From: a virus
Lineage: Duplodnaviria > Caudoviricetes
IMG/VR virus record: IMGVR_UViG_3300020045_006775
Span: 1 to 51,759 of that record
DNA: 51,759 bases
Reading direction: 5' to 3' (one strand)
Part shown: positions 2,952 through 51,759 of the stretch, piece by piece
Position numbering within the stretch: the first letter of the stretch is position 1
How the letters are laid out: every line of letters begins with the position of its first letter
The notes under the pieces: model-generated
Database searches by the model: none
What the model saw: only the letters and a program-made list of their open reading frames with translations
What the model was told of the DNA's origin: nothing
Position numbers and translations under genes: made by a program

Positions 2952-5678
2952 TCAGACCAGATCGTCCCCTGCAACCTCAAACGGGTCAGCTGGCAAATTG
3001 ATCTTGAGCCCCCGGAACCAGAGCGCCCCGCCCCGCATCTGCCGCGAAACACCCTTTGCCGTGGCAATCTCATCGTAGAACGTATGCCTGCCCATCTTGA
3101 GCCCTGCGTTTTCTTCCTGAACCCATCCCTGGAATTCGTCCCACAATTGTTTTGCGGAAACCCGATCAGACGCCACCCCGGTAACAGTAAGCCTCTCAGT
3201 CAGGAATCCTGCCAGGGTGTTGCGCTTACCCTTCCAGACATCAAGCGCCTCTTTACACGATTCAGACTGCTTGAAGCACCCGCGTTTCAAAACCCGTTCC
3301 CAGCCCGCGATCAGGTGATTCAGAATTCCGGCAAGTTCTTTGTCGCGGATTCTCCCCTGCAGCGTGTGGTCGGTTTCCTCATCCGAGATTGTGTTTTTGA
3401 ACCAAAAAATCTGAGCCCGGCGAGTCATGCCATAGCTGTTGTCAACGGTCTTAGGCCAGCTATTCGTCAAGATGAGCGGCACAGCCCTGGAAATAAAATT
3501 CACTTCACCCGCAAATTTGGGGTTGGCCGTCATGCCCTTTTCCTCTGACAGCTTTTTGAGCATGCCGTCAGGGAGCATCGCGCCTTTTTCAAAATCGTCG
3601 TCAACAAGCAACATTTTTCCGATCAGCCCGGCTTCCATGTGTGCATTTCCACTGGTGCCCAATTTAGACAGTTCTTTTCGGACAATCGCGTCTTCACCCA
3701 TAATCGATTGCAGCGTTGACGAAATCATTGACTTACCGTTCGATCCTGAGCCGTAAAACATTACCCATGTAGCCAATGAGCGTTTTGTCTGCAGGATGTA
3801 GCCCATGACTTCGTAGAGGTGGCGGATCGTTTCTTCTGAGTCTTTCGCACCGCCCAGCAATTTTGCAATGGCCCTATCCCACAACGGGCACGTTGCATCC
3901 GGGTCATATTCCGTGGAGAACTGGCACGTTAGGCGACTTTCGGGGTTGTGGTCACGAAACTCTGTGCGAACCTTGAACTGGCCGTCAGCTCCGCGATCAT
4001 GCCCAGCGGTGAACACAAGCTCGCCATTCGTGCAATTCATGATCGACTCTTTGGCATGTGATGCAAGGCGCATAGGGTCTTTGACGCCGCCCTCTGCAAG
4101 CTTCTTTCCGAGGATTCCGCAGATTGCATTGCTGAGAGCGTTAAGCGTGTCGTTGCGGCCTGAATCTTTCAGGGCTGCAGCTAATTGCGGGTTGTCAGTA
4201 CCCTGGGCGATCTGGCCAATGATTTTGCAGATCACACCGCCAATTGTTTCGTCACTGATGACTGACCAGACGCCAGAGCGGAAATGCCAGAATTGTTTTG
4301 CATGGCGAAGCAGATGCTTACCGCCTTTGTAGCGGACCCGAAGAGTTTCCTCAGCAATCCAGTCTTCGAGGCTGACCATCGCCCGAGCCTGGTTCGATCC
4401 ATCAAGTTCCGACTTTTCGGCTTTGATGGATTTTTTGATCACACCTTTGCTGAGCTTGGCACCGTTTGGGCCACCGAATGCCATCAACAGCGGCATTACC
4501 GATTCCATCTCAATTTCAGTCAGGTCGTAACCCGCGACAACAGTGATCGCCTCAGTAATATTTTTGCAGCCTTTCAGCTTTTCGGAGCATTGCGTGAACG
4601 CGCCGCCTGAAACTTTGCCAAGTTTGATGATGCTGGCCATCGTTTTTGACAGCCCGCCCCGGCCTAATGCGAACGAAGTCCATGCGCTATCAAGGTCACC
4701 CTGGTTGAACAGTTCCGAGCGCTTTGAAAACTCTTCCCAGATCGCTTTACCATCATCTTTGCCGTCGAATTCGTGGTGAAGGGCCATGCCGACTTCAATC
4801 CACTTCGGCCTAGACCCCTTTGCGTTGCAATATTCTTCAAAGTCCAGCGCCATGACTGCATCACGGGCTTTTTCGACGCTCAGGCCCACTGGGGGCTGGC
4901 GAACAGCGTTAAGCAGGAAATCGCTGTCCTCATCCTCGCTTTGCGTGACAACCGAGCGCTCAGCAATGGTTATATCGACAGCTTCTGAAACCATGCCGCA
5001 GAATCGGCCAAGGCGCACAGCCACCGGGTCAGCAATACCGTCGAAAACCGGGCTGGCTGTGTAGTGGACGCGAACGCGCCCGAACATTGATGAATCGAGC
5101 AGACTGGCTTTGTTATCGTGCAGCAGGGCATCCGCCCATGACTTGATAGACTCTTTCGCCACTGGCGTTTCGAGCCAAAACCAGACGTGTACGCGAAGCC
5201 CCTTTTTGCCGGGCATGCCAGCACTTGAGGACAACTGCCACACGTAATCCACACCCCAGAACGAGCGTGGCAGGTAGAGCGTAATCCACTCATTCACGGC
5301 GTTTTCAACGTCACGCACAGGGTCAAATGAGCCCAGTTCCCATGAGTCGATGTCGAGGCAGATCAGGTTCTGCTTGGCGTCCTGGAACGCCTCACGAACC
5401 CGGCGAACCCGCTGCAGTTCCTGGTGATAAACAGGTTCGTCTTTGTGTTTTGCACGGATAGCGATGTATTCACCGGCAAATTTGTCGATCAGCAGCGCTT
5501 TATTCGGTTGTTTGCTGAGTTCCCCCAGCAGTTCTTCAACATCATCGAGAGAGTGGACTTGCCTCTCTGAGAATTCAAACCATTTTGCTGATCCGTAGCT
5601 TTCCGTTCCTGTGGTTGTGTGTTTTTTGGTCAGCAGAATGCCATCTGCGCTCTGGAGAACGGTCAAGTAAGTCGTCAT
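2952..5678 (-). CDS. Primase-helicase (AEP-like primase, PriCT-2, D5/P4-type SF3 helicase)
   Basis: 'ICLDID' and 'RVHVWFWL' primase motifs; PriCT-like 'KWIEVGMALHHEF..WEEFSK'; Walker A 'GSGSNGKS', Walker B 'LLVDDD', motif C 'LILTN'. Confidence 0.9.
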   Translation of the reverse strand: MTTYLTVLQSADGILLTKKHTTTGTESYGSAKWFEFSERQVHSLDDVEELLGELSKQPNKALLIDKFAGEYIAIRAKHKDEPVYHQELQRVRRVREAFQDAKQNLICLDIDSWELGSFDPVRDVENAVNEWITLYLPRSFWGVDYVWQLSSSAGMPGKKGLRVHVWFWLETPVAKESIKSWADALLHDNKASLLDSSMFGRVRVHYTASPVFDGIADPVAVRLGRFCGMVSEAVDITIAERSVVTQSEDEDSDFLLNAVRQPPVGLSVEKARDAVMALDFEEYCNAKGSRPKWIEVGMALHHEFDGKDDGKAIWEEFSKRSELFNQGDLDSAWTSFALGRGGLSKTMASIIKLGKVSGGAFTQCSEKLKGCKNITEAITVVAGYDLTEIEMESVMPLLMAFGGPNGAKLSKGVIKKSIKAEKSELDGSNQARAMVSLEDWIAEETLRVRYKGGKHLLRHAKQFWHFRSGVWSVISDETIGGVICKIIGQIAQGTDNPQLAAALKDSGRNDTLNALSNAICGILGKKLAEGGVKDPMRLASHAKESIMNCTNGELVFTAGHDRGADGQFKVRTEFRDHNPESRLTCQFSTEYDPDATCPLWDRAIAKLLGGAKDSEETIRHLYEVMGYILQTKRSLATWVMFYGSGSNGKSMISSTLQSIMGEDAIVRKELSKLGTSGNAHMEAGLIGKMLLVDDDFEKGAMLPDGMLKKLSEEKGMTANPKFAGEVNFISRAVPLILTNSWPKTVDNSYGMTRRAQIFWFKNTISDEETDHTLQGRIRDKELAGILNHLIAGWERVLKRGCFKQSESCKEALDVWKGKRNTLAGFLTERLTVTGVASDRVSAKQLWDEFQGWVQEENAGLKMGRHTFYDEIATAKGVSRQMRGGALWFRGLKINLPADPFEVAGDDLV

Positions 5679-6128: not shown

Positions 6129-6208
6129 TTCTATCGGTTTTTGTGGTCTAATTTGGGCTCAAGTGGTGTTGGACCACAAAAAACCCTGAAATCAACTTTG
6201 GAAACACT

Positions 6209-17366: not shown

Positions 17367-19497
17367 TTACAACTCTTTAGAAGAAATCCTGCTCAGTACC
17401 GCTGACATGGTGCGCCCGCCTGAGCGGCTTACTGTGCATGAGGCTGCAGCGCGTTACGTTTACATCAATTACCCCGGCGCTTACGTTGGTTTTTACAGCA
17501 ACTCGACAGCCCCGTACATGACTGAGCCCCAGGAAATCCTGACATCACGTGATTACACATCGATGGCTTTTGTCGGGCCTGCACGGGCTGGTAAAACCCA
17601 ATTGCTGCTGAACTGGATCGGCTACAGCGCCATTTGTGATCCCGGCGATATGCTCATGGCGCAACCGTCCAAAGATTCAAGCCGGGACTTTTCGATGCGC
17701 GATCTTGACCGGATGATCCGATATTCGCCTGAGGTCAAAAGCCGGATGGTGCAGCGCTTGGACGCTGATAATACGTTCGACAAACATTTTTCGTCGGGCA
17801 TGATCCTGAAATTGTCCTGGCCATCAATCAATGAGTTTTCAGGTAAAACTGTTGGCAGGGGCTGGTTGGCCGACTATGACCGCTTTCCTGAATCAATTGA
17901 TGGTGAGGGCTCAGGCTTCGATTTGCTGAAACGCCGAACTCAGACGTTCAAGCGCAACGGCATGACGGCTGTTGAATCAAGCCCCGGTTTCCCCGTTGAA
18001 AATCCAAAGTGGCAACCGTCAAGCCCCCATGAAGCCCCACCGGCAAAGGGCATCCTCGCACTCTATAACCGGGGTGATCGCAGGCGCTATTACTGGCGCT
18101 GCCCGCATTGCCAAGAGGTTTTCGAGGGTGATTTCAAACATCTGAGCTACCCGAAGACCAAGGATTATGGTGACGCGGCTGCGCAGGCTGTGATGGTTTG
18201 CCCGCATAACGGCTGCATCATTACCCATGATGGTGACGATAAGAACGGCATCCCCGGAAAAAATGAACTAAACCGCCGTGGAAAATGGTTACGTGAGCGC
18301 CAGATTTGGCTACCCGATGGAACGACTAGCGGCGGGATCAAGTCTGATGACATGGCTAGCTTTTGGCTAAAAGGCACAGCGGCAGCGTTCAACACGTGGG
18401 AAAAACTGGTGTTGGACTACCTTAAGGCTGAGGACGAATACGAACGAACGGGTTCCGAAGAAGCTCTTAAAGTCACGATCAACACAGGGCAGGGTTTGCC
18501 GTATTTCTCAAAATTGAACCACGTTGAACGCCTGCCGGAAGAGCTGAAAGCCCGCGCAAAAGATATTGGCGTGCAGGTTGTTCCTGCGGGTGTTCGTTGG
18601 CTAGAGGCTACCGTTGACGTTCAGAAGTCCCGTTTTGTTGTGCAAGTTCACGGGTTCGGCGTCGGCGGTGAAGTGTGGATTGTTGATCGGTTCGACATTC
18701 GGAAATCAAAACGACTTGATGAGGATGGTCACCCGATGGCCGTCAACCCAGCAGCATACCCCGAAGACTGGTTGCTGCTGATCCCGATGATGCAGAAAAC
18801 CTACCCCCTGGCAGATAAGAGTGGGCGTCGAATGATGATCAAACTCACAGCATGCGATTCTGGCGGTGCAGCAAACACTAAAGATAAGACTACGCAAGAG
18901 GGTAGCATTGCGGCAGTCGGTGGTGTTACTGCAAATGCTTACAACTTTTACCGCTACTTACGGAACAACCCTGATGGTGAGCATGACGCAAACTTGTTCC
19001 GCAGGTTCCAGCTTGTGAAGGGGGACAGTAGCAATTCGGCCCCGCGTGTCTCACTGCGCTACCCGGATTCCGAACGCAAGGATCGTCACGCTGGCGCACG
19101 TGGCGAAATTCCAGTGCTGTTTATCAATGGCACAATCCTGAAGGATATGGTTTCGGCTAAACTAGACAGGTCGGACAAAGCTGGATCGGCTGTAAATTTC
19201 CCGGATTGGTTGCCCGATACGTTCTACGCCGAACTGACTGCTGAGGTCCGCACAAACAAAGGCTGGGAAAACCCAAGGAAGCTACGCAATGAGTCCCTGG
19301 ACTTGCTGTGCTATGCTCTAGCCTTGACGCTCACTCATCACATCAATATTGAGCGCCTAGACTGGGACAACCCCCCAAGCTGGGCTGCTGAGTGGGATAA
19401 TAACGATTTAGTTCTGGTTGACGATTCAACCAACAGGTTTGCATCGAAACCAAAAGTTGAATATGATTTACGCGCCCTTGCATCAAAACTTGCATGA
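17359..19497 (+). CDS. terL: Terminase large subunit, lambda gpA family
   Basis: Walker A 'GPARAGKT', 'DYDR', 'ESSP', Zn motif 'CPHC', nuclease 'TVDVQ' and 'RNESLDL..Y'. Confidence 0.95.
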   Translation: MANYNSLEEILLSTADMVRPPERLTVHEAAARYVYINYPGAYVGFYSNSTAPYMTEPQEILTSRDYTSMAFVGPARAGKTQLLLNWIGYSAICDPGDMLMAQPSKDSSRDFSMRDLDRMIRYSPEVKSRMVQRLDADNTFDKHFSSGMILKLSWPSINEFSGKTVGRGWLADYDRFPESIDGEGSGFDLLKRRTQTFKRNGMTAVESSPGFPVENPKWQPSSPHEAPPAKGILALYNRGDRRRYYWRCPHCQEVFEGDFKHLSYPKTKDYGDAAAQAVMVCPHNGCIITHDGDDKNGIPGKNELNRRGKWLRERQIWLPDGTTSGGIKSDDMASFWLKGTAAAFNTWEKLVLDYLKAEDEYERTGSEEALKVTINTGQGLPYFSKLNHVERLPEELKARAKDIGVQVVPAGVRWLEATVDVQKSRFVVQVHGFGVGGEVWIVDRFDIRKSKRLDEDGHPMAVNPAAYPEDWLLLIPMMQKTYPLADKSGRRMMIKLTACDSGGAANTKDKTTQEGSIAAVGGVTANAYNFYRYLRNNPDGEHDANLFRRFQLVKGDSSNSAPRVSLRYPDSERKDRHAGARGEIPVLFINGTILKDMVSAKLDRSDKAGSAVNFPDWLPDTFYAELTAEVRTNKGWENPRKLRNESLDLLCYALALTLTHHINIERLDWDNPPSWAAEWDNNDLVLVDDSTNRFASKPKVEYDLRALASKLA

Positions 19498-19736: not shown

Positions 19737-21377
19737 ATGGCACTCGATACTGACGCAATTGACCTGCTGGGAGATGCTGCCCAGCCCCAAGCTATCGGTG
19801 GCGCGTTTGAGGGCGCAAGCCGGTATGACCGTGACCTGGCGATGTGGGCACCCGCTTTGCGCTCTGCCGACTTAGACATCTTGCCCGAAAAAGGCCGGAT
19901 GGAAGCCCGTACCCGCGATATTGCCCGGAATGACGCCTATGTTCAGTCTGGGACTGACATCAATCGCGACGGCATCATTGGTGGTGCCTACCTGCTGAAC
20001 GCAAAGCCCGCATTCAAAATTCTCGGATTGGATAGTGAGTGGGCCGAAGCATTCTCAGAAGAAGTCGAGGAAAAATTCACGCTTTATGCGGAGTCGCCGT
20101 CAAATTGGATTGACGCCAGCCGCATGAATACGCTCACCGAATTGCTGCGCTTGGCGATTGGAGTCCACACCATTTCCGGTGAAATCCTCGCCACTGCAGA
20201 ATGGATGCGTGAGACAAACCGCTCATACGCAACCGCAATCCAAATGGTTGATCTTGACCGCCTGAGTAACCCGAACGGGCAGGCCGACGATCAGTTTATG
20301 CGCGGTGGCATTGAGCGTAACAAATTCGGTGCGCCGGTTGCTGCCCATATCCAAATGGCGCACCCAAGTGATTACACCGCTGGCGCAGATTCCTACACGT
20401 GGAAGCGTGTCCCAATGACGAAGCCTTGGGGCCGTCAGCAGGTGATCCACATTTTTGAACAGAATCGCCCGGATCAAAGCCGTGGGATCAGCTCAATGGT
20501 GGCCGCTCTCAAGGAAATGAAAATCACGAAAAAGTTCCGTGACGTTACGTTGCAGAACGCCGTGGTCAACGCGACTTATGCCGCCAGTATCGAATCTGAT
20601 TTGCCGCCTGAAGTGGCTATGGCGGCTATGGGTGGTGGGCAGGTTGACCCCCGCGCCATCACGAATTACGCGGCGTCATACCTGGGGGCTGTATCCGAAT
20701 ACTCAGGCAACAGCCGGAACATGCACATTGACGGGGTAAAAATCCCCCACTTCTTTCCTGGAACACGCTTGCAACTTCGCCCCGCTGGCACTCCTGGCGG
20801 TGTAGGTACTGAATTTGAAACATCACTCTTGCGCTACATCGCGGCGTCCCTTGGTGTGTCATATGAAGAGCTGAGCCGGGATTTTTCCAAGACGAATTAC
20901 TCTAGCGCCCGCGCTGCGATGAATAATACTTGGAAGCACCTATCTGCCAAAAAGAAAGTGGTTGCCGATAAAATGGCATCACTGGCTTACCGGCTTTGGC
21001 TGGAAGAGGCTTTGAATAAGGGCACGATTAAATCCGCCCCGAAGAACGCCGTTGACCTTTGGTACGCCTCACCCGAAAACGCTGATGCCCTGGCACGCTG
21101 CGAATGGCTTGGCGCAAACCGTGGTCAGATTGACGAACTCAAAGAGACGCAAGCCGCCGTTCTGCGCCTCAAGTACAATCTAAGCACCAAAGAAGACGAA
21201 TTGGGACGCCTTGGGAAAGATTGGCGCAAAGTCGCACTGCAACGTCAGCGCGAAAACAGATTAGATGCAGAATACGGCTTGGTGAATGAGGAATCAAACG
21301 CCATAAATGCTGCATCTGGGGCTGTGCAAGAGCGCAGTGCCAAGGGTACAAAGAATGACGGAACAAGCGGAAATTAA
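19737..21377 (+). CDS. Portal protein, lambda family
   Basis: 'R.RD..RND', 'RPDQSRGIS', 'LGVSYEELSRDFSKTNYSSARA', 'ID.LKE'. Confidence 0.95.
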   Translation: MALDTDAIDLLGDAAQPQAIGGAFEGASRYDRDLAMWAPALRSADLDILPEKGRMEARTRDIARNDAYVQSGTDINRDGIIGGAYLLNAKPAFKILGLDSEWAEAFSEEVEEKFTLYAESPSNWIDASRMNTLTELLRLAIGVHTISGEILATAEWMRETNRSYATAIQMVDLDRLSNPNGQADDQFMRGGIERNKFGAPVAAHIQMAHPSDYTAGADSYTWKRVPMTKPWGRQQVIHIFEQNRPDQSRGISSMVAALKEMKITKKFRDVTLQNAVVNATYAASIESDLPPEVAMAAMGGGQVDPRAITNYAASYLGAVSEYSGNSRNMHIDGVKIPHFFPGTRLQLRPAGTPGGVGTEFETSLLRYIAASLGVSYEELSRDFSKTNYSSARAAMNNTWKHLSAKKKVVADKMASLAYRLWLEEALNKGTIKSAPKNAVDLWYASPENADALARCEWLGANRGQIDELKETQAAVLRLKYNLSTKEDELGRLGKDWRKVALQRQRENRLDAEYGLVNEESNAINAASGAVQERSAKGTKNDGTSGN

Positions 21378-26840: not shown

Positions 26841-27266
26841 ATGAGTAAATTTTTTGTCCCGTCCCTGACGCTTGAAGTCCCTGGTACGGACTTCAAGCTT
26901 AAGGTTCGCGGGTTATCCTTTAATCACATGGTTGCGTTGGTTGCTGATCATAAGGCTCTGCTGATTGATCTGTATAAGCAGCTCACCGAAAAACAGACTT
27001 TCTCGGACGGCGATATTGGATCGCTTATGAGTGAGCTGATTTGCGAGGCACCCGGATTGGTGGCTCATGCGATTGCCCTGTCTGCGGGCATGCCTGATGA
27101 GAAGAAAGAGTTTGAAGACCTTCCGTTTACCGTGCAGCTTGAAGCTCTTGAAGCCATTTTTACCCTGACTTTCGGGCGGGCAGGTGGCGGAAAAAAATTC
27201 GTGGAAATGGCAACCAGGATAGCAAACAGCCTGACGGCTCAGGTGAAGAACCTGACGAAAGCCTAA
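26841..27266 (+). CDS. Tail assembly chaperone (gpG-like)
   Basis: Lies between tail tube and tape measure; slippery A7 run at 27191-27197. Confidence 0.8.
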   Translation: MSKFFVPSLTLEVPGTDFKLKVRGLSFNHMVALVADHKALLIDLYKQLTEKQTFSDGDIGSLMSELICEAPGLVAHAIALSAGMPDEKKEFEDLPFTVQLEALEAIFTLTFGRAGGGKKFVEMATRIANSLTAQVKNLTKA

Positions 27267-40429: not shown

Positions 40430-40435
40430 CGACGG

Positions 40436-40473
40436 TTTCAACCAGCGGTTACAATAGCGACCAGTGGTTGAAA
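40436..40473. promoter_or_regulatory. Tandem operator-like dyads upstream of holin
   Basis: TTTCAAC-CAGCG-GTTACAA directly followed by TAGCGAC-CAGTG-GTTGAAA. Confidence 0.6.
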
Positions 40474-40527
40474 CTGCCGGGGATCACAGCAGTGGCTAAA
40501 AACAAACGGATACGACTGGATTTAGAA

Positions 40528-46014: not shown

Positions 46015-46308
46015 TTACAGCAGCGTCTCATCGACATCGTTCACCGCGTTTTTTGAGGCGGTGGCGGGTGTGAATTTCATAACTTGCCGGGGTGCCAGGG
46101 TAATAATCCCACCAGTTGCTGCGCATTTTAAATTGCGCTCAAGGTATTCCCGGCGATCAAACACCCCGAAATTCGTGAGCTTGACAGCCTCACCATTGGC
46201 GACAGCCGTTTGAATTTGCGTGAATGCGTCTTCAAGCAACAGTTTTGTAGCAGCAATAGAAAGACCGTGCTTTTTTGCGACCGTCTTTGCGAGTTTTTCA
46301 AAGTTCAT
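46015..46308 (-). CDS. HU/IHF-family DNA-binding protein
   Basis: 'MN..KL...VA....LS......L......I...V..GE.VKL.NFG.F...TG..I......MKF'; GGAG RBS. Confidence 0.85.
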   Translation of the reverse strand: MNFEKLAKTVAKKHGLSIAATKLLLEDAFTQIQTAVANGEAVKLTNFGVFDRREYLERNLKCAATGGIITLAPRQVMKFTPATASKNAVNDVDETLL

Positions 46309-48026: not shown

Positions 48027-48509
48027 CTATTTTGCCGCCGTGCGTGAGCCGCGAAAGCGGAAATGTGTGACACCGGCTTTGGCGCTCAGGTCAACGAATT
48101 GCAGGCACTCAATGCTGAGCCAAGCTGTTTCTGCGCCACCGGGCAGCGAATATTGAAACTCAGACGCCAGTTTGAGCTGTTTGTATGCAGCGGCGTCGTT
48201 GACTGAGTTCCAGGCGGGTTCTGCCGCCTGCATTGGCATTGCAGGGGCGACTGACACCAGCGGCGTATAAACTGCTGTGCGATCCGTGCCAGCGGTTGCG
48301 GGAATGCCCGAGAACGCGGCCAGCGCGCCTGCCAGGGAGCGGATTGCTGTCGATGATGCACTGGCGGCTTGTGTCGTCTTGGCGAACGCCTGGGCGGTGC
48401 CAGTGAGCGTTTGGGAACGGGTTGCGGCAACTGGAGCTGCGGGTTTGGCTGATACCAGGGCGCAGGCTTTACTGGCAATGCGGCTGATGAATGATGCTGG
48501 TGATTTCAT
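48027..48509 (-). CDS. Hypothetical protein
   Basis: AGGA RBS; first gene of the leftward cluster. Confidence 0.65.
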   Translation of the reverse strand: MKSPASFISRIASKACALVSAKPAAPVAATRSQTLTGTAQAFAKTTQAASASSTAIRSLAGALAAFSGIPATAGTDRTAVYTPLVSVAPAMPMQAAEPAWNSVNDAAAYKQLKLASEFQYSLPGGAETAWLSIECLQFVDLSAKAGVTHFRFRGSRTAAK

Positions 48510-48577
48510 GATTTCCTATCTGCCCTGATCCGGGCTTTTGATTGCTGAGAACTGTAGTATGCACCAGTTTTTGAGCG

Positions 48578-48596
48578 TTTCAACTGTTTGTTGAAA
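48578..48596. promoter_or_regulatory. Perfect operator dyad upstream of the leftward accessory operon
   Basis: TTTCAAC-TGTTT-GTTGAAA. Confidence 0.7.
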
Positions 48597-49001
48597 AATA
48601 AATTGTTTGTTGTCGAAATGGTACGTTTCGGGTGTTGTTTTTATGAGAATTCTGGCGTGTCTTTGGGCTGAGACTTCCCGGAATTCGGGCTGGCGTCATT
48701 GGGTAAATGCTGAAATCTGCCCAGGATTGGCTGGCCGAAAATCAAAAAAATTTTTTTCTCGAAATGGCCAGAAAAACTGGAATCGAACTGCGATTTCGTT
48801 GTTTTTGGCGAGGGGAACCGGCTCACTTGCCATAAATTAGGGATTTTTGACCCGCCCCTTTTCGGCCTTTGCCGGGGCTGGGAGAATTCTGTTTTCGGCC
48901 TGGCCGGGATTTGTGAACCGGAAATCAGCGATAGCTCTGGGCTACCGGCTTGCGGGAATCTATAGGGAAAAACTATCGAATACTTGGGCGGGCGTCAAGA
49001 T

Positions 49002-49078
49002 GTAAGTATCCTGTTACACGTGTAATATATTTGTAAAGGTCAAAAAAGGCGGTGGATACTAGGTTTTTGAGCTATACT
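49002..49078 (+). promoter_or_regulatory. GTAA-phased promoter
   Basis: GTAA/GTTA at 49002, 49013, 49022 and 49033, then 36 bp, then TATACT. Confidence 0.55.
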
Positions 49079-49146
49079 TGATGCATCAACCGGCAAAGAT
49101 GCTTGTTGACCAGGGCGTTTTGCCCGGAAAAACCTTAGGACTCAAA

Positions 49147-49632
49147 ATGACATACATCTGGACCGACCCCCAAGCCGGGCTTAGCAAAGCCCAAATCGAA
49201 ATTGACCATCACGCCCGCATTTTTGGAAGCTCATACTTAAGGCTTTCGCGGGGTGAACTCCAGGATTTTGTTGTTGCAATGCGTGACTATAAATATCAAC
49301 TGATGCGCGTCGGAGAAGACCCCGCATTTTTAGAGGGGGTTTTGCAACAATCAGAATCACTATGCATTGCGGCGGTAACGAAAAACCCGTGGGCGCTGGC
49401 ATATTGCAAAAATATGACTGAAAAAATTTGCATGATTGCGCTGATTGGTGACCCCGGAGTTGCGCGCTTGATCCCCGAAAAATCTATGACCGCCCCAATT
49501 GTTGATGTGATCGACGCCCGCAAAAAGGTGGAGGCGGCGGAACGTGAATACAACGACGCGGTCAATCGAAGCGTTTTGCAAATACCTGGACTGGCCGAAA
49601 TCCTCGGATTGACCGAAATGATTGATGACTGA
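49147..49632 (+). CDS. DUF4116-like helical repeat protein
   Basis: 'QSESLCIAAVTKNPWALAY' and 'MTEKICMIAL..DP.V..LI'; AGGA RBS. Confidence 0.7.
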   Translation: MTYIWTDPQAGLSKAQIEIDHHARIFGSSYLRLSRGELQDFVVAMRDYKYQLMRVGEDPAFLEGVLQQSESLCIAAVTKNPWALAYCKNMTEKICMIALIGDPGVARLIPEKSMTAPIVDVIDARKKVEAAEREYNDAVNRSVLQIPGLAEILGLTEMIDD

Positions 49633-49634
49633 AT

Positions 49635-49812
49635 TGTAAAAGATTGTAAAGACCTGAAAAACCCCGAAAATGCTTAGTTTTTGGGTTATACTAAAGGCTA
49701 AGGCGGGCTGATGAGTAAAGCGGCTCTTACCGGGCCGCATCTTAGATAATCTTGGATTTACCAGGGCTATCTAAGATGCTGATTTAGCATCATTTCAATC
49801 AATTTTTTAGGA
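49635..49812 (+). repeat. Intergenic promoter/structured-leader repeat, copy 1
   Basis: Close direct repeat of 50193-50372. Confidence 0.9.
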
Positions 49813-49819
49813 AATCAAA

Positions 49820-50188
49820 ATGGCAAAAATTATCAACGCGGTTAACAATATGAGCATGCATGCAATCATTGCGGAACATGGACTTGTTAGCGTCAACCGT
49901 GACGAACTTGGTGATGCGCTGGCCGGGGTGAATGATCGTGGTATAGCATACTCATTAGAGTTTTTTAGAGCGTCGAAAACAACGCTAGTTGTGCCCGGCG
50001 TCGAATTTACCGCAAATGCGGTTAAAAAAATCAATGCCGCCGTGATTTCGGCGGGTTGCAAGAGCGCTCATGACGCGCTTACTGTTGTACTCAAAATGGT
50101 TAAACCCGGTGATGGCGTTACTTTTTTCGACGCGGGAAAGGTTGATACATACAAAATGCTCATCAACGGAAGGCTTGACTGGTCATAA
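49820..50188 (+). CDS. Hypothetical protein
   Basis: AGGA RBS at the end of repeat copy 1. Confidence 0.75.
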   Translation: MAKIINAVNNMSMHAIIAEHGLVSVNRDELGDALAGVNDRGIAYSLEFFRASKTTLVVPGVEFTANAVKKINAAVISAGCKSAHDALTVVLKMVKPGDGVTFFDAGKVDTYKMLINGRLDWS

Positions 50189-50192
50189 TAGA

Positions 50193-50372
50193 TGTAAAAG
50201 ATTGTAAAGACACGAAAAACCCCGAAAATACTTAGTTTTTGGGTTATACTAGAGGCTAAGGCGGGGGGATAGGAAAAGAGGCTCTTACCGGGCCGCATCT
50301 TAGATAGTCAAGGGCTTACCAGGGCTATCTAAGATGCTGATTTAGCATCATTTTTCAATCAATTTTTTAGGA
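50193..50372 (+). repeat. Intergenic promoter/structured-leader repeat, copy 2
   Basis: Close direct repeat of 49635-49812. Confidence 0.9.
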
Positions 50373-50380
50373 TAATCATC

Positions 50381-50896
50381 ATGGCTACTCAAAAATTTTA
50401 CGCCGCTTTTGACATCACCCGCGAAAGCGCCATTGACGCGGGTTACATTTTTGGATCAGGCGTTGATGCAATCAGCGCAAAAGTTGACGCCGCTGGCCGG
50501 GATTATGGTAGCAAAAACGTCGATGATTATGTTGTTGCAAGGATGGCCGTTGACCTGGCTACCAGCGTTGATGCAAGCGGGGGCGCTGGGAATTTGGGTT
50601 ACGTCATCATTCAGCCGGGCATTATTGGATCATTTTCCGATAAGGACCGGCATGACGATTTCACCGCCTCTTTGGAAAAATCATCATCAAATCCAGCGGC
50701 GGTTTATGTTTTCCGTGATGTTTTTGATGATCAATTGCGTCATATCGCAACAATCACTGGAAAAAATGAACGTGTGTGCATGACCGAGGCTATGCGCCGC
50801 TATCCTGGAATTGATTACCTGATTTCCGTCGATGATATTTCCGGGGCGGATTCAATGCTCAAAACCTCCAGCCGCTCAATTATGATCAACCTCTAA
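50381..50896 (+). CDS. Hypothetical protein
   Basis: AGGA RBS at the end of repeat copy 2. Confidence 0.75.
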   Translation: MATQKFYAAFDITRESAIDAGYIFGSGVDAISAKVDAAGRDYGSKNVDDYVVARMAVDLATSVDASGGAGNLGYVIIQPGIIGSFSDKDRHDDFTASLEKSSSNPAAVYVFRDVFDDQLRHIATITGKNERVCMTEAMRRYPGIDYLISVDDISGADSMLKTSSRSIMINL

Positions 50897-50903
50897 TTTT
50901 CTT

Positions 50904-50984
50904 GCGGCTCTTACCGGGGCCGCATCTTAAATAGCCTGATCGACGGGTTATTTAAGATGCAATCAAGCATCATTTTTTCAAGGA
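50904..50984 (+). repeat. Structured-leader repeat, copy 3 (hairpin part only)
   Basis: GCGGCTCTTACCGGGGCCGCATCTTAAATAG...TTATTTAAGATGC...GCATC. Confidence 0.85.
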
Positions 50985-50989
50985 TTTTT

Positions 50990-51295
50990 ATGAGTGCTTT
51001 TAATGCAATTGGGGCGTTAACCTGGGTGTGGCCCGCCGCGCTTTATGAGGTTCAATTTCCGGGTATCGAATTCACCGCCGAAGAAAAAGCCGCGCTGGAT
51101 TCGCGGGCGGCTATCGGCATTGTTTTCCGCCTGGCGGCTATGATCAATGTATTTTATGGCGTTTACGCGCTGATCGAAAACGGGTCGATTGCAACGCTGA
51201 TCATAGCGTTGATTATTAGCGTGGTCTTTTGGATTGCTGTGCCAACCGAACCATCTAGCGTGATCAACGCTAGAATCAAAATGTTAGAATTTTAA
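50990..51295 (+). CDS. Hypothetical membrane protein
   Basis: Two TM segments; AAGGA RBS at the end of repeat copy 3. Confidence 0.7.
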   Translation: MSAFNAIGALTWVWPAALYEVQFPGIEFTAEEKAALDSRAAIGIVFRLAAMINVFYGVYALIENGSIATLIIALIISVVFWIAVPTEPSSVINARIKMLEF

Positions 51296-51316
51296 ACCGT
51301 TATTTTTGGAGCTATT

Positions 51317-51559
51317 ATGATTGATAAAAAACTGATTCAGAAAATCCTGGGCTATGCTCAAATGGGCGTGATGCCTTGCCACAATGTTGTTTATTCGGCG
51401 CTCCAGGGTGTTGACGCTGGTGCAATCAGGGGGGCGTTGATGGTGATTTTGGCCGGTGATCAACCTTCTGATGCTGCCCTTACCGCCGCCCGCGCTGAAC
51501 TTTTTGCGATTGAACACCACGCGCCTGAAATTCAACGGCGCTGGTTGACTACCGTCTAA
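51317..51559 (+). CDS. Hypothetical protein
   Basis: GGAG RBS; followed by a terminator. Confidence 0.7.
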   Translation: MIDKKLIQKILGYAQMGVMPCHNVVYSALQGVDAGAIRGALMVILAGDQPSDAALTAARAELFAIEHHAPEIQRRWLTTV

Positions 51560-51583
51560 GCGTCCAGCCCTCGATCTCACCAT

Positions 51584-51609
51584 AGCCCGCCTTACCAGCG
51601 GGCTTTTTT
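51584..51609 (+). terminator. Rho-independent terminator with CTTACCA loop
   Basis: AGCCCGC-CTTACCA-GCGGGCT-TTTTT. Confidence 0.85.
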
Positions 51610-51625
51610 ACGTCTGGTGTTTGTG

Positions 51626-51686
51626 ATGGTGAGCATGGTGAGCATGGTGAGCATGGTGAGCATGGTGATGGTGGATGGTGGATGGT
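51626..51686. repeat. Short tandem repeat with ATGGT(G) core
   Basis: (ATGGTGAGC)x4, ATGGTG, (ATGGTGG)x2, ATGGT. Confidence 0.9.
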
Positions 51687-51759
51687 CCCACGCTTGACCA
51701 GGCTCGGCTTCGCCCCGAATGCTATCAATATCATAGCGCCGAGGTTCTAGCGCTGGATT

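Follow-up and report, generated by a model that had tools for sequence, protein, structure and literature searches.

Three consecutive accessory genes near the end of a 51,759-base viral contig, which was analysed over its whole length (the window), are each preceded by a copy of one leader element, and each copy is probably a processing site at which the host RNase III would cut a long stem (H2), after which the hairpins H3 and H1 would cap the new RNA ends. This reading is based on the sequence, on three overlapping folds obtained in silico, on the place of the element before the ribosome-binding site (RBS) and on the fit of H2 to RNase III rules at one register.

The window encodes, among others, a primase, a DNA polymerase, a helicase, an integrase, a terminase and capsid and tail proteins, and the phage is Casjensviridae-like and temperate. 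Among 454 records the best match to its capsid protein is the one from Achromobacter phage AchV4 (Casjensviridae), with 66.5% identity, and the gene order of both phages is similar; the + strand cluster at 49147-51559 diverges from a group of small genes on the − strand, an arrangement also shown by AchV4_0062-0064. No close relative was present in the collections (top capsid identity in IMG/VR 63%), blastn of 49600-51000 against 50,697 phage records returned no match, and the ORFs at 49820 and 50381 matched only themselves in the collections and gave no usable Atlas match. A KilA-N protein, with 73-74% to its best matches, and an HU-like DNA-binding protein are encoded at 852-1724 and 46018-46308 (both − strand). 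Hints as to the host point to Betaproteobacteria, and the top named matches of the KilA-N protein are from Polaromonas, Bordetella/Pseudomonas and Gallionella.

Other repeats were also observed in the window. The palindrome TTCAAC-N5-GTTGAA, with one mismatch allowed, occurs at nine places (92, 1788, 8568, 13257, 14156, 16324, 25998, 38807 and 48579; 0.1 strand-hits expected) and at 16 places in the 39.5 kb of AchV4, and at none in seven other related records; these are likely repressor operators spread across the genome. Short tandem 9-mer repeats lie near the contig end (51625-51680), and TTGCCCATGAAA-type tandem repeats at 2530-2830, downstream of the primase gene, mark a possible origin.

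The gene cluster and its leaders comprise the following features.

49022..49078, + strand: promoter-like block P0 of presumed function (GTAAH repeat, RATRCT box, TATACT at 49073), with no leader element after it
49147..49632, + strand: upstream accessory ORF, 161 aa
49636..49692, + strand: promoter-like block P1 (GTAAA-N5-GTAAA at 49636-49650, poor -35, TATACT at 49687-49692)
49720..49738, + strand: copy 1, hairpin H1, expected to cap the upstream cleavage product at its 3' end
49737..49779, + strand: copy 1, stem H2, 19 positions with one A.C mismatch
49743/49744 and 49774/49775, + strand: copy 1, predicted RNase III cuts
49775..49791, + strand: copy 1, hairpin H3, expected to cap the cut mRNA at its 5' terminus
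49820..50188, + strand: ORFan, 122 aa
50194..50250, + strand: promoter-like block P2, duplicate of P1
50280..50294, + strand: copy 2, hairpin H1, 5-pair core only
50295..50337, + strand: copy 2, stem H2, predicted cuts 50301/50302 and 50332/50333
50333..50349, + strand: copy 2, hairpin H3
50381..50896, + strand: ORFan, 171 aa
50904..50923, + strand: copy 3, hairpin H1, 7 nt past the upstream stop codon, without promoter block
50922..50960, + strand: copy 3, stem H2, 17 pairs, fully paired, U-G at pair 16
50928/50929 and 50955/50956, + strand: copy 3, predicted cuts
50956..50971, + strand: copy 3, hairpin H3
50990..51295, + strand: ORF, 101 aa, from an ATG behind an AAGGA site
51317..51559, + strand: last ORF of the cluster, 80 aa, without leader element in front
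51584..51604, + strand: intrinsic-terminator-like hairpin ending the cluster, -12.4 kcal/mol, T5 tail

The first-pass annotation had described one element in front of the genes at 49820, 50381 and 50990, and all three copies were recovered there, with H2 stems starting at 49737, 50295 and 50922; nhmmer and a covariance model each found exactly three copies in the 51.8 kb genome. All six segments compared with shuffled sequences were unusually stable (z of -3.6 to -6.1, with none of 200 shuffles as stable in each case). H1 overlaps H2 by the first 2 nt of H2 and is not identical in all copies, as had been assumed, for copy 2 begins with GAGGC and copy 3 carries one extra G. The compensatory change reported for H2 of copy 3 is present (pair 9, G-C to A-U), yet the conclusion drawn from it, that pairing rather than sequence is conserved, asks too much of three copies: one of 21 pairs is changed on both sides, which 276 of 500 shuffles equalled. 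The suggested Rfam check gave no match at the gathering threshold in the window (best E 0.08 in 48500-51759). The motif TTACC recurs at 49726, 49756, 50284, 50313, 50910 and 51591, that is, in all H1 loops, in the H2 loops of copies 1 and 2 and in the loop of the end terminator. For the 101-aa ORF an additional in-frame ATG is found at 50957, within the GATGC box.

Copies 1 and 2 are embedded in a longer repeat of ~197 nt (49635-49831 versus 50193-50397, 180 of 197 aligned bases identical), which runs from just past the upstream stop codon into the next start, thereby spanning the whole intergenic gap, and includes the promoter-like block. Copy 3 consists of the leader only and starts 7 nt after a stop codon, from which we infer that the leader must act within a longer transcript; no terminator-like site was called in the terminator scan between the 161-aa ORF and copy 1. 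The promoter-like motif occurs at four sites of the genome (49022, 49636 and 50194 on the + strand, 47188 on the − strand), with GTAAH-N5/6-GTAAH near -56, RATRCT 11-12 nt before a TAYAMT -10 box and a poor -35, and was absent from AchV4 (L303) and seven relatives; P1 was not called by the sigma-70 scan. Its GTAAA-N5-GTAAA part presumably resembles a CpxR box. The TGCTT Mot-box likeness of the family rests on the accessible part of PMC4122927.

A repeat that fills a whole intergenic gap (180/197) and flanks an ORFan could also represent a recombining promoter-leader cassette of the T4-type PeSL kind, by which accessory genes are gained and lost and whose hairpins merely stabilise the 5' end; such behaviour is reported for PeSLs in the accessible text of PMC4122927. 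As the explanation of the element this is quite unlikely. Copy 3 lacks the promoter, the element and its genes were found in no relative, recombination leaves the fixed stem length and pair pattern unexplained, and the PeSL criterion places the stem-loop upstream of the promoter, whereas here the -10 box comes before the stem-loops. Where copies 1 and 2 are concerned a cassette is plausible, and it can coexist with RNase III processing.

For RNase III processing we propose the following course. Host RNase III would cut H2; the downstream mRNA would then refold with H3 closing its new 5' end, H1 would close the 3' end of the upstream piece, and both caps may slow decay by RNase E and 3' exonuclease. 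GCAUC/GAUGC would serve as the lower proximal box, a third copy of which would pair with the strand that cutting releases. As a predicted outcome each message would be separate and protected at its ends, its 5' leader measuring 34-48 nt. For the copies we presume from these features that they are transcribed and cleaved, that the RNA refolds in vivo and that the caps slow its decay.

The folding calculations are consistent with this course. Full pairing of H2 predicts a double cut. For the first base of the predicted cut mRNA the pairing probability was 0.96-1.0 in 10 of 11 elements (the three copies together with eight look-alikes described below), and 0.72-0.96 in copy 3, depending on the folded length. 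The predicted products fold best apart, and the upstream piece would terminate with H1 and a few further bases. From the predicted cut to the ATG the distance is 32-48 nt. Five look-alikes had been searched for with a pattern that included H3, so that the cap test is free only in the three that were found as neighbours. The first-pass annotation had regarded H2 and H3 as mutually exclusive through a common GATGC. The shared GATGC is confirmed, and the two hairpins are better read as the folds before and after the cut than as a ligand switch. H3 had furthermore been placed just ahead of the RBS; it ends 28, 31 and 18 nt before the ATG and hence, in copies 1 and 2, at some distance from the RBS. 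A translational switch is disfavoured by this distance of 18-31 nt and by the small and inconsistent shift in predicted RBS accessibility from the uncut to the cut state (0.59 to 0.69, 0.64 to 0.59 and 0.71 to 0.57).

The same folds bear on an attenuator, in which H3 and its U-rich tail would terminate, the full H2 would be the antiterminator and H1 would shift the balance. The terminator scan flags H3 of copies 2 and 3, 4-6 T occur within the first 8 bases after H3, and H1 plus H3 is the minimum-energy fold in short segments of copies 1 and 3. Nevertheless we consider an attenuator very unlikely, given that H3 reaches -5.1 to -6.2 kcal/mol compared with -12.4 for the terminator ending the cluster, that equilibrium folding of RNA ending at H3 gave its closing pair P values of 0.01, 0.01 and 0.09, that an A separates the stem from the U run, that H1 and H2 share just 2 nt, and that none of the eight look-alikes has four U in a row directly after H3.

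Antitermination was likewise part of the earlier proposal, and GCTCTTAC presumably resembles lambda boxA. That GCTCTTAC acts as the boxA of a lambda-type nut site and recruits Nus factors is nonetheless highly improbable: half of the motif is buried in H1 (in copy 1 the pairing probability of its bases 1-4 is 0.98-0.99), no look-alike has it, no N-like protein was found among the 49 ORFs scanned, and only six of the 10 specified positions match, even if the first six bases fit the consensus in the accessible part of PMC5725501. Readings at the DNA level were tried and rejected as well. A DNA operator does not fit the variable spacing of the H2 arms, the inner stem that pairs despite changed sequence and the deviations from a perfect palindrome that are mostly G-U on the + strand; a restriction site was dismissed on the grounds that GCATC occurs 162 times versus 170 expected.

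The register geometry was taken from the accessible parts of three sources. PMC1540722 describes a minimal RNase III helix of 11 pairs with a 4-pair proximal box at the cut and a U-A/U-G distal box, PMC3867540 gives 22 pairs from one distal box to the other, and Table S4 of PMC6212723 contains the pair counts of 85 in-vivo RNase III sites. With numbering from the base of H2, pair 7 corresponds to position A, pairs 8-11 to the proximal box and pairs 16-17 to the distal box, and the tested register cuts after GCAUCUU (nucleotide 7) and before the G of GAUGC. Copy 1 carries U-G at pair 16 and U-A at pair 17, and this combination was found at precisely these pairs in L114, L374a, L623 and L651e3 as well; copy 3 and L651e2 have the U-G alone of the distal box, and copy 2 is mismatched at pairs 16 and 17 (A.G, A.A). 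Pairs 3 and 10 (D' and D) are A-U or U-A in all three copies and all 11 elements, pair 3 being fixed by the search pattern in most of them.

Scored by log-odds over paired positions (Table S4 counts), the tested register was the best of nine in 3/3 copies and in 8/9 elements, the exception being L183 (3.8 versus 3.9). For pairs 9-18 alone, which no search pattern fixed, it was best in 7/9 elements, and after shuffling of these pairs the observed sum, with one element per lineage, was reached once in 20,000 (~5 × 10−4 after multiplication by nine registers). As controls, 163 hairpins with the same 8-pair base were collected, and the 29 with at least six of pairs 9-17 formed were scored. U-G at pair 16 was present in 7/11 elements and 1/29 controls, and A-U/U-A at pair 10 in 11/11 and 15/29, where the elements are not all independent; U-G/U-A at pairs 16-17 occurred in 0/29 controls, and inner log-odds of at least 2.3 in 6/9 elements versus 0/29 controls. 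Furthermore, a scan of the window blind to sequence examined 279 stem registers, of which 21 had a cap and 14 had log-odds of at least 3; both were combined in three registers, and these are the three copies. Pair pattern, register fit and blind scan thus support the predicted RNA processing at an RNase III-type stem, which the earlier annotation had listed among its options. Among other long stems of the window, those at 6136-6187 (+), 20327-20369 (+), 26864-26904 and 40434-40474 (approximate coordinates) have log-odds of 3.1-6.8 and neither cap nor RBS, and the last one includes operator-like arms.

Several findings point the other way. The register rules come from E. coli and may not hold in the host of this phage; according to the accessible text of PMC3867540 the distal-box sequence is not conserved across species. 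Copy 2, mismatched at pairs 16 and 17, has lost its entire distal box. H2 comprises 17-19 pairs, 10-12 positions of which lie above the predicted cut, compared with an ideal of ~22 in total and a minimum of 11 to one side of the cut in the accessible parts of PMC3867540 and PMC1540722, respectively. The pairs around the cuts are C-G, U-A, U-A and A-U in all three copies (S-W-W-W), not the in-vivo preference W-S-S-W given in the available part of PMC6212723, with G-C/C-G between the cuts and A-U beside them; in its Table S4 the four central pairs of the copies occur 15, 15, 10 and 23 times out of 85. A C-G beside the 3'-arm cut is moreover a catalytic antideterminant in vitro (PMC1540722, accessible part), and in the precursor of copy 1 the base of H2 forms with a P of just 0.49. 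The full score, an approximation whose values may shift with the gap handling of the authors of PMC6212723 (seen in part), was -21.6, -22.3 and -24.0 for the copies and thus above the authors' cut-off of -25.5, which 16/29 controls pass too and 5/8 look-alikes miss; by this score the tested register was best in only 4/9 elements. On pairs 9-18, L152 and L183 fit the neighbouring register at least as well. Similar inner log-odds (2.1-3.7) were obtained for the reverse strand of the copies, and assignment to the + strand depends on its G-U pairs and RBS and on the cap, which this strand alone can form.

Some of these points would suit a stem that is bound or cut by another factor, or that RNase III only binds or nicks, with the same net effect on RNA ends or translation. 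GCAUC/GAUGC is more conserved than usual RNase III sites, whose proximal boxes are degenerate in the accessible text of PMC3867540; the C-G beside the 3'-arm cut may block catalysis and not binding (PMC1540722, in part); and the mismatch that two look-alikes have at position A would make a single nick more likely. Such an alternative is unlikely, since the conserved positions and the length of 17-19 pairs match RNase III contacts, and no protein common to the window and the five look-alike contigs was found.

Beyond the window, eight look-alikes with the same layout were obtained in five phage-like contigs unrelated to it, which together with the three copies makes 11 elements in four lineages. 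The pattern scans combined the H2 arms with a third GCATC and returned mostly chance hairpins: the scan giving three look-alikes had 78 loci (47 distinct, three kept), a further one 94 loci (67 distinct, one new element), one over 13/64 parts at least 119 loci (one kept), one over 27/64 parts at least 120 loci (one of 15 strong stems passing the filter), a control scan 115 loci, and another just two loci, neither similar to the element. L114, L152, L183 (3/47 distinct matches), L374 and L623 showed features outside the pattern, in that a hairpin overlaps their 5' arm and an RBS and an ATG follow shortly after the element; among strong stems this H1 plus RBS layout was found in 3/14 versus 2/42, an enrichment that is not significant (p 0.09). 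The other three look-alikes, of which G045 has one and G044 two, emerged from reading the neighbourhoods and not via the pattern. L114/L651 and L152/L183 are related pairs. No DNA or protein similarity was detected between the window and the five contigs, all of which resemble phage early regions (DUF932, DUF3150, DUF2201 and terminase-like genes). L623 had no Rfam match at the gathering threshold, and for the look-alikes none was relevant.

In G044 five consecutive genes are preceded by three elements (genes 2909, 4010 and 4875) and two hammerhead-like cores (genes 3411 and 3653), and G045 contains two elements and two such cores. The cores lie in gene gaps (L651, G044, at 3340 and 3581; L652, G045, reverse strand, at 1076 and 1999), and we took them to be hammerhead-like from a core motif plus folding; none of the four gave an Rfam hammerhead match. 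L114 (1680-2200) and L651 (2520-2900) each show a strong sigma-70-like promoter, then 300-480 nt without clear ORF and then the first element, and have a short GTCCGAATTGACGG-like hairpin in common.

Searches of relatives and collections were otherwise negative, and no sequencing runs were found. The H1 pattern matched 27 loci in IMG/VR, none of which continues into H2, and model R1 found the element in none of 44 records with a related capsid protein (0/13 near-complete ones). The sequence-blind scan of 417,236 bases from seven capsid-related records (three of them scanned with gaps of 0.4-1.5 kb) and of the 39.5 kb of AchV4 gave one of 2,890 registers with cap and score, of different sequence. 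None of nine DUF932 relatives of L183 has the element behind the gene, and the search for relatives of the L651 gene returned itself only. As side observations, L659 (G010) has, near 19382 on the − strand, a single long stem with an overlapping 3' hairpin before a gene (log-odds 6.5, AAGGC/GCCTT boxes, C-G at D'). L116, L117, L125, L143, L154 and L159 carry tandem palindromes TAAGATGC-N4-8-GCATCTTA, matched on both strands, which resemble paired protein or recombinase binding sites and are distinct from the leader element; the same pattern occurs in L108 (3001-3051), L119 and L141 upstream of a gene that, judged by eye, resembles a type I restriction-modification M subunit.

We offer only tentatively, at somewhat less than an even chance, the wider interpretation that unrelated phages converged on one portable, self-capping RNase III cassette absent from Rfam, in which the proximal box is repeated three to four times in alternating orientation, cutting drives strand exchange, product release and sealing of both ends, and the unit is an insulator interchangeable with hammerheads in early operons. 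RNase III cuts in leaders often destabilise the downstream message owing to its unstructured monophosphate end (accessible parts of PMC3867540 and PMC5371410); the self-capping layout would make such a cut stabilising, and its predictions are base-exact. If true, processing sites of uncultured phages could be searched for by this signature, synthetic operons would gain a compact part that keeps genes separate, and sequence common to unrelated phages would be explained as convergence on an enzyme preference.

Parts of this scheme are already known, namely RNase III sites between early T7 genes and the protective hairpins proposed to follow cleavage in E. coli; the literature search, largely outside subscription journals, found no account of a repeated element capped by a freed proximal-box strand. 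The PeSL/PmSL units of T4-like phages are similar in that promoter, stem-loop and Shine-Dalgarno sequence are repeated before ORFans in variable regions, and PmSLs have a TGCTT box before the -10, where P1 has ATGCTT 11 nt before TATACT; PeSL stem-loops are described as terminators, in contrast to the three overlapping hairpins in a presumably transcribed leader here (PMC4122927, accessible text). Hammerhead ribozymes near phage genes are suggested to process polycistronic transcripts (PMC6765202, accessible part), and similar cores fill equivalent gaps in G044 and G045; hammerheads self-cleave, however, and no hammerhead-like core was found in the window. At the E. coli sites in ahpC-ahpF, pflB and yajQ RNase III stabilises transcripts, and in the proposal of Gordon et al. 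the new 3' or 5' ends made by cleavage carry protective hairpins (PMC5371410, accessible text). Those are single chromosomal sites and not a repeated cassette, and a cap from the stem's own proximal-box strand is not described in the accessible part of that paper. The early polycistronic mRNA of T7, a precursor of ~7,000 nt with five RNase III signals (PMC3867540, in part), likewise has stem-loops between early phage genes, and its R1.1 signal shares the 11-pair upper helix and the proximal and distal boxes, including the U-G/U-A distal box of copy 1 (PMC1540722, accessible part). In T7, cleavage of a single strand leaves the stem itself as the 3' hairpin, as far as the accessible text of PMC1540722 and PMC3867540 goes, whereas in the window a double cut is predicted, the strands set free would fold into separate overlapping hairpins, H1 and H3, and the signals are repeats of one unit.
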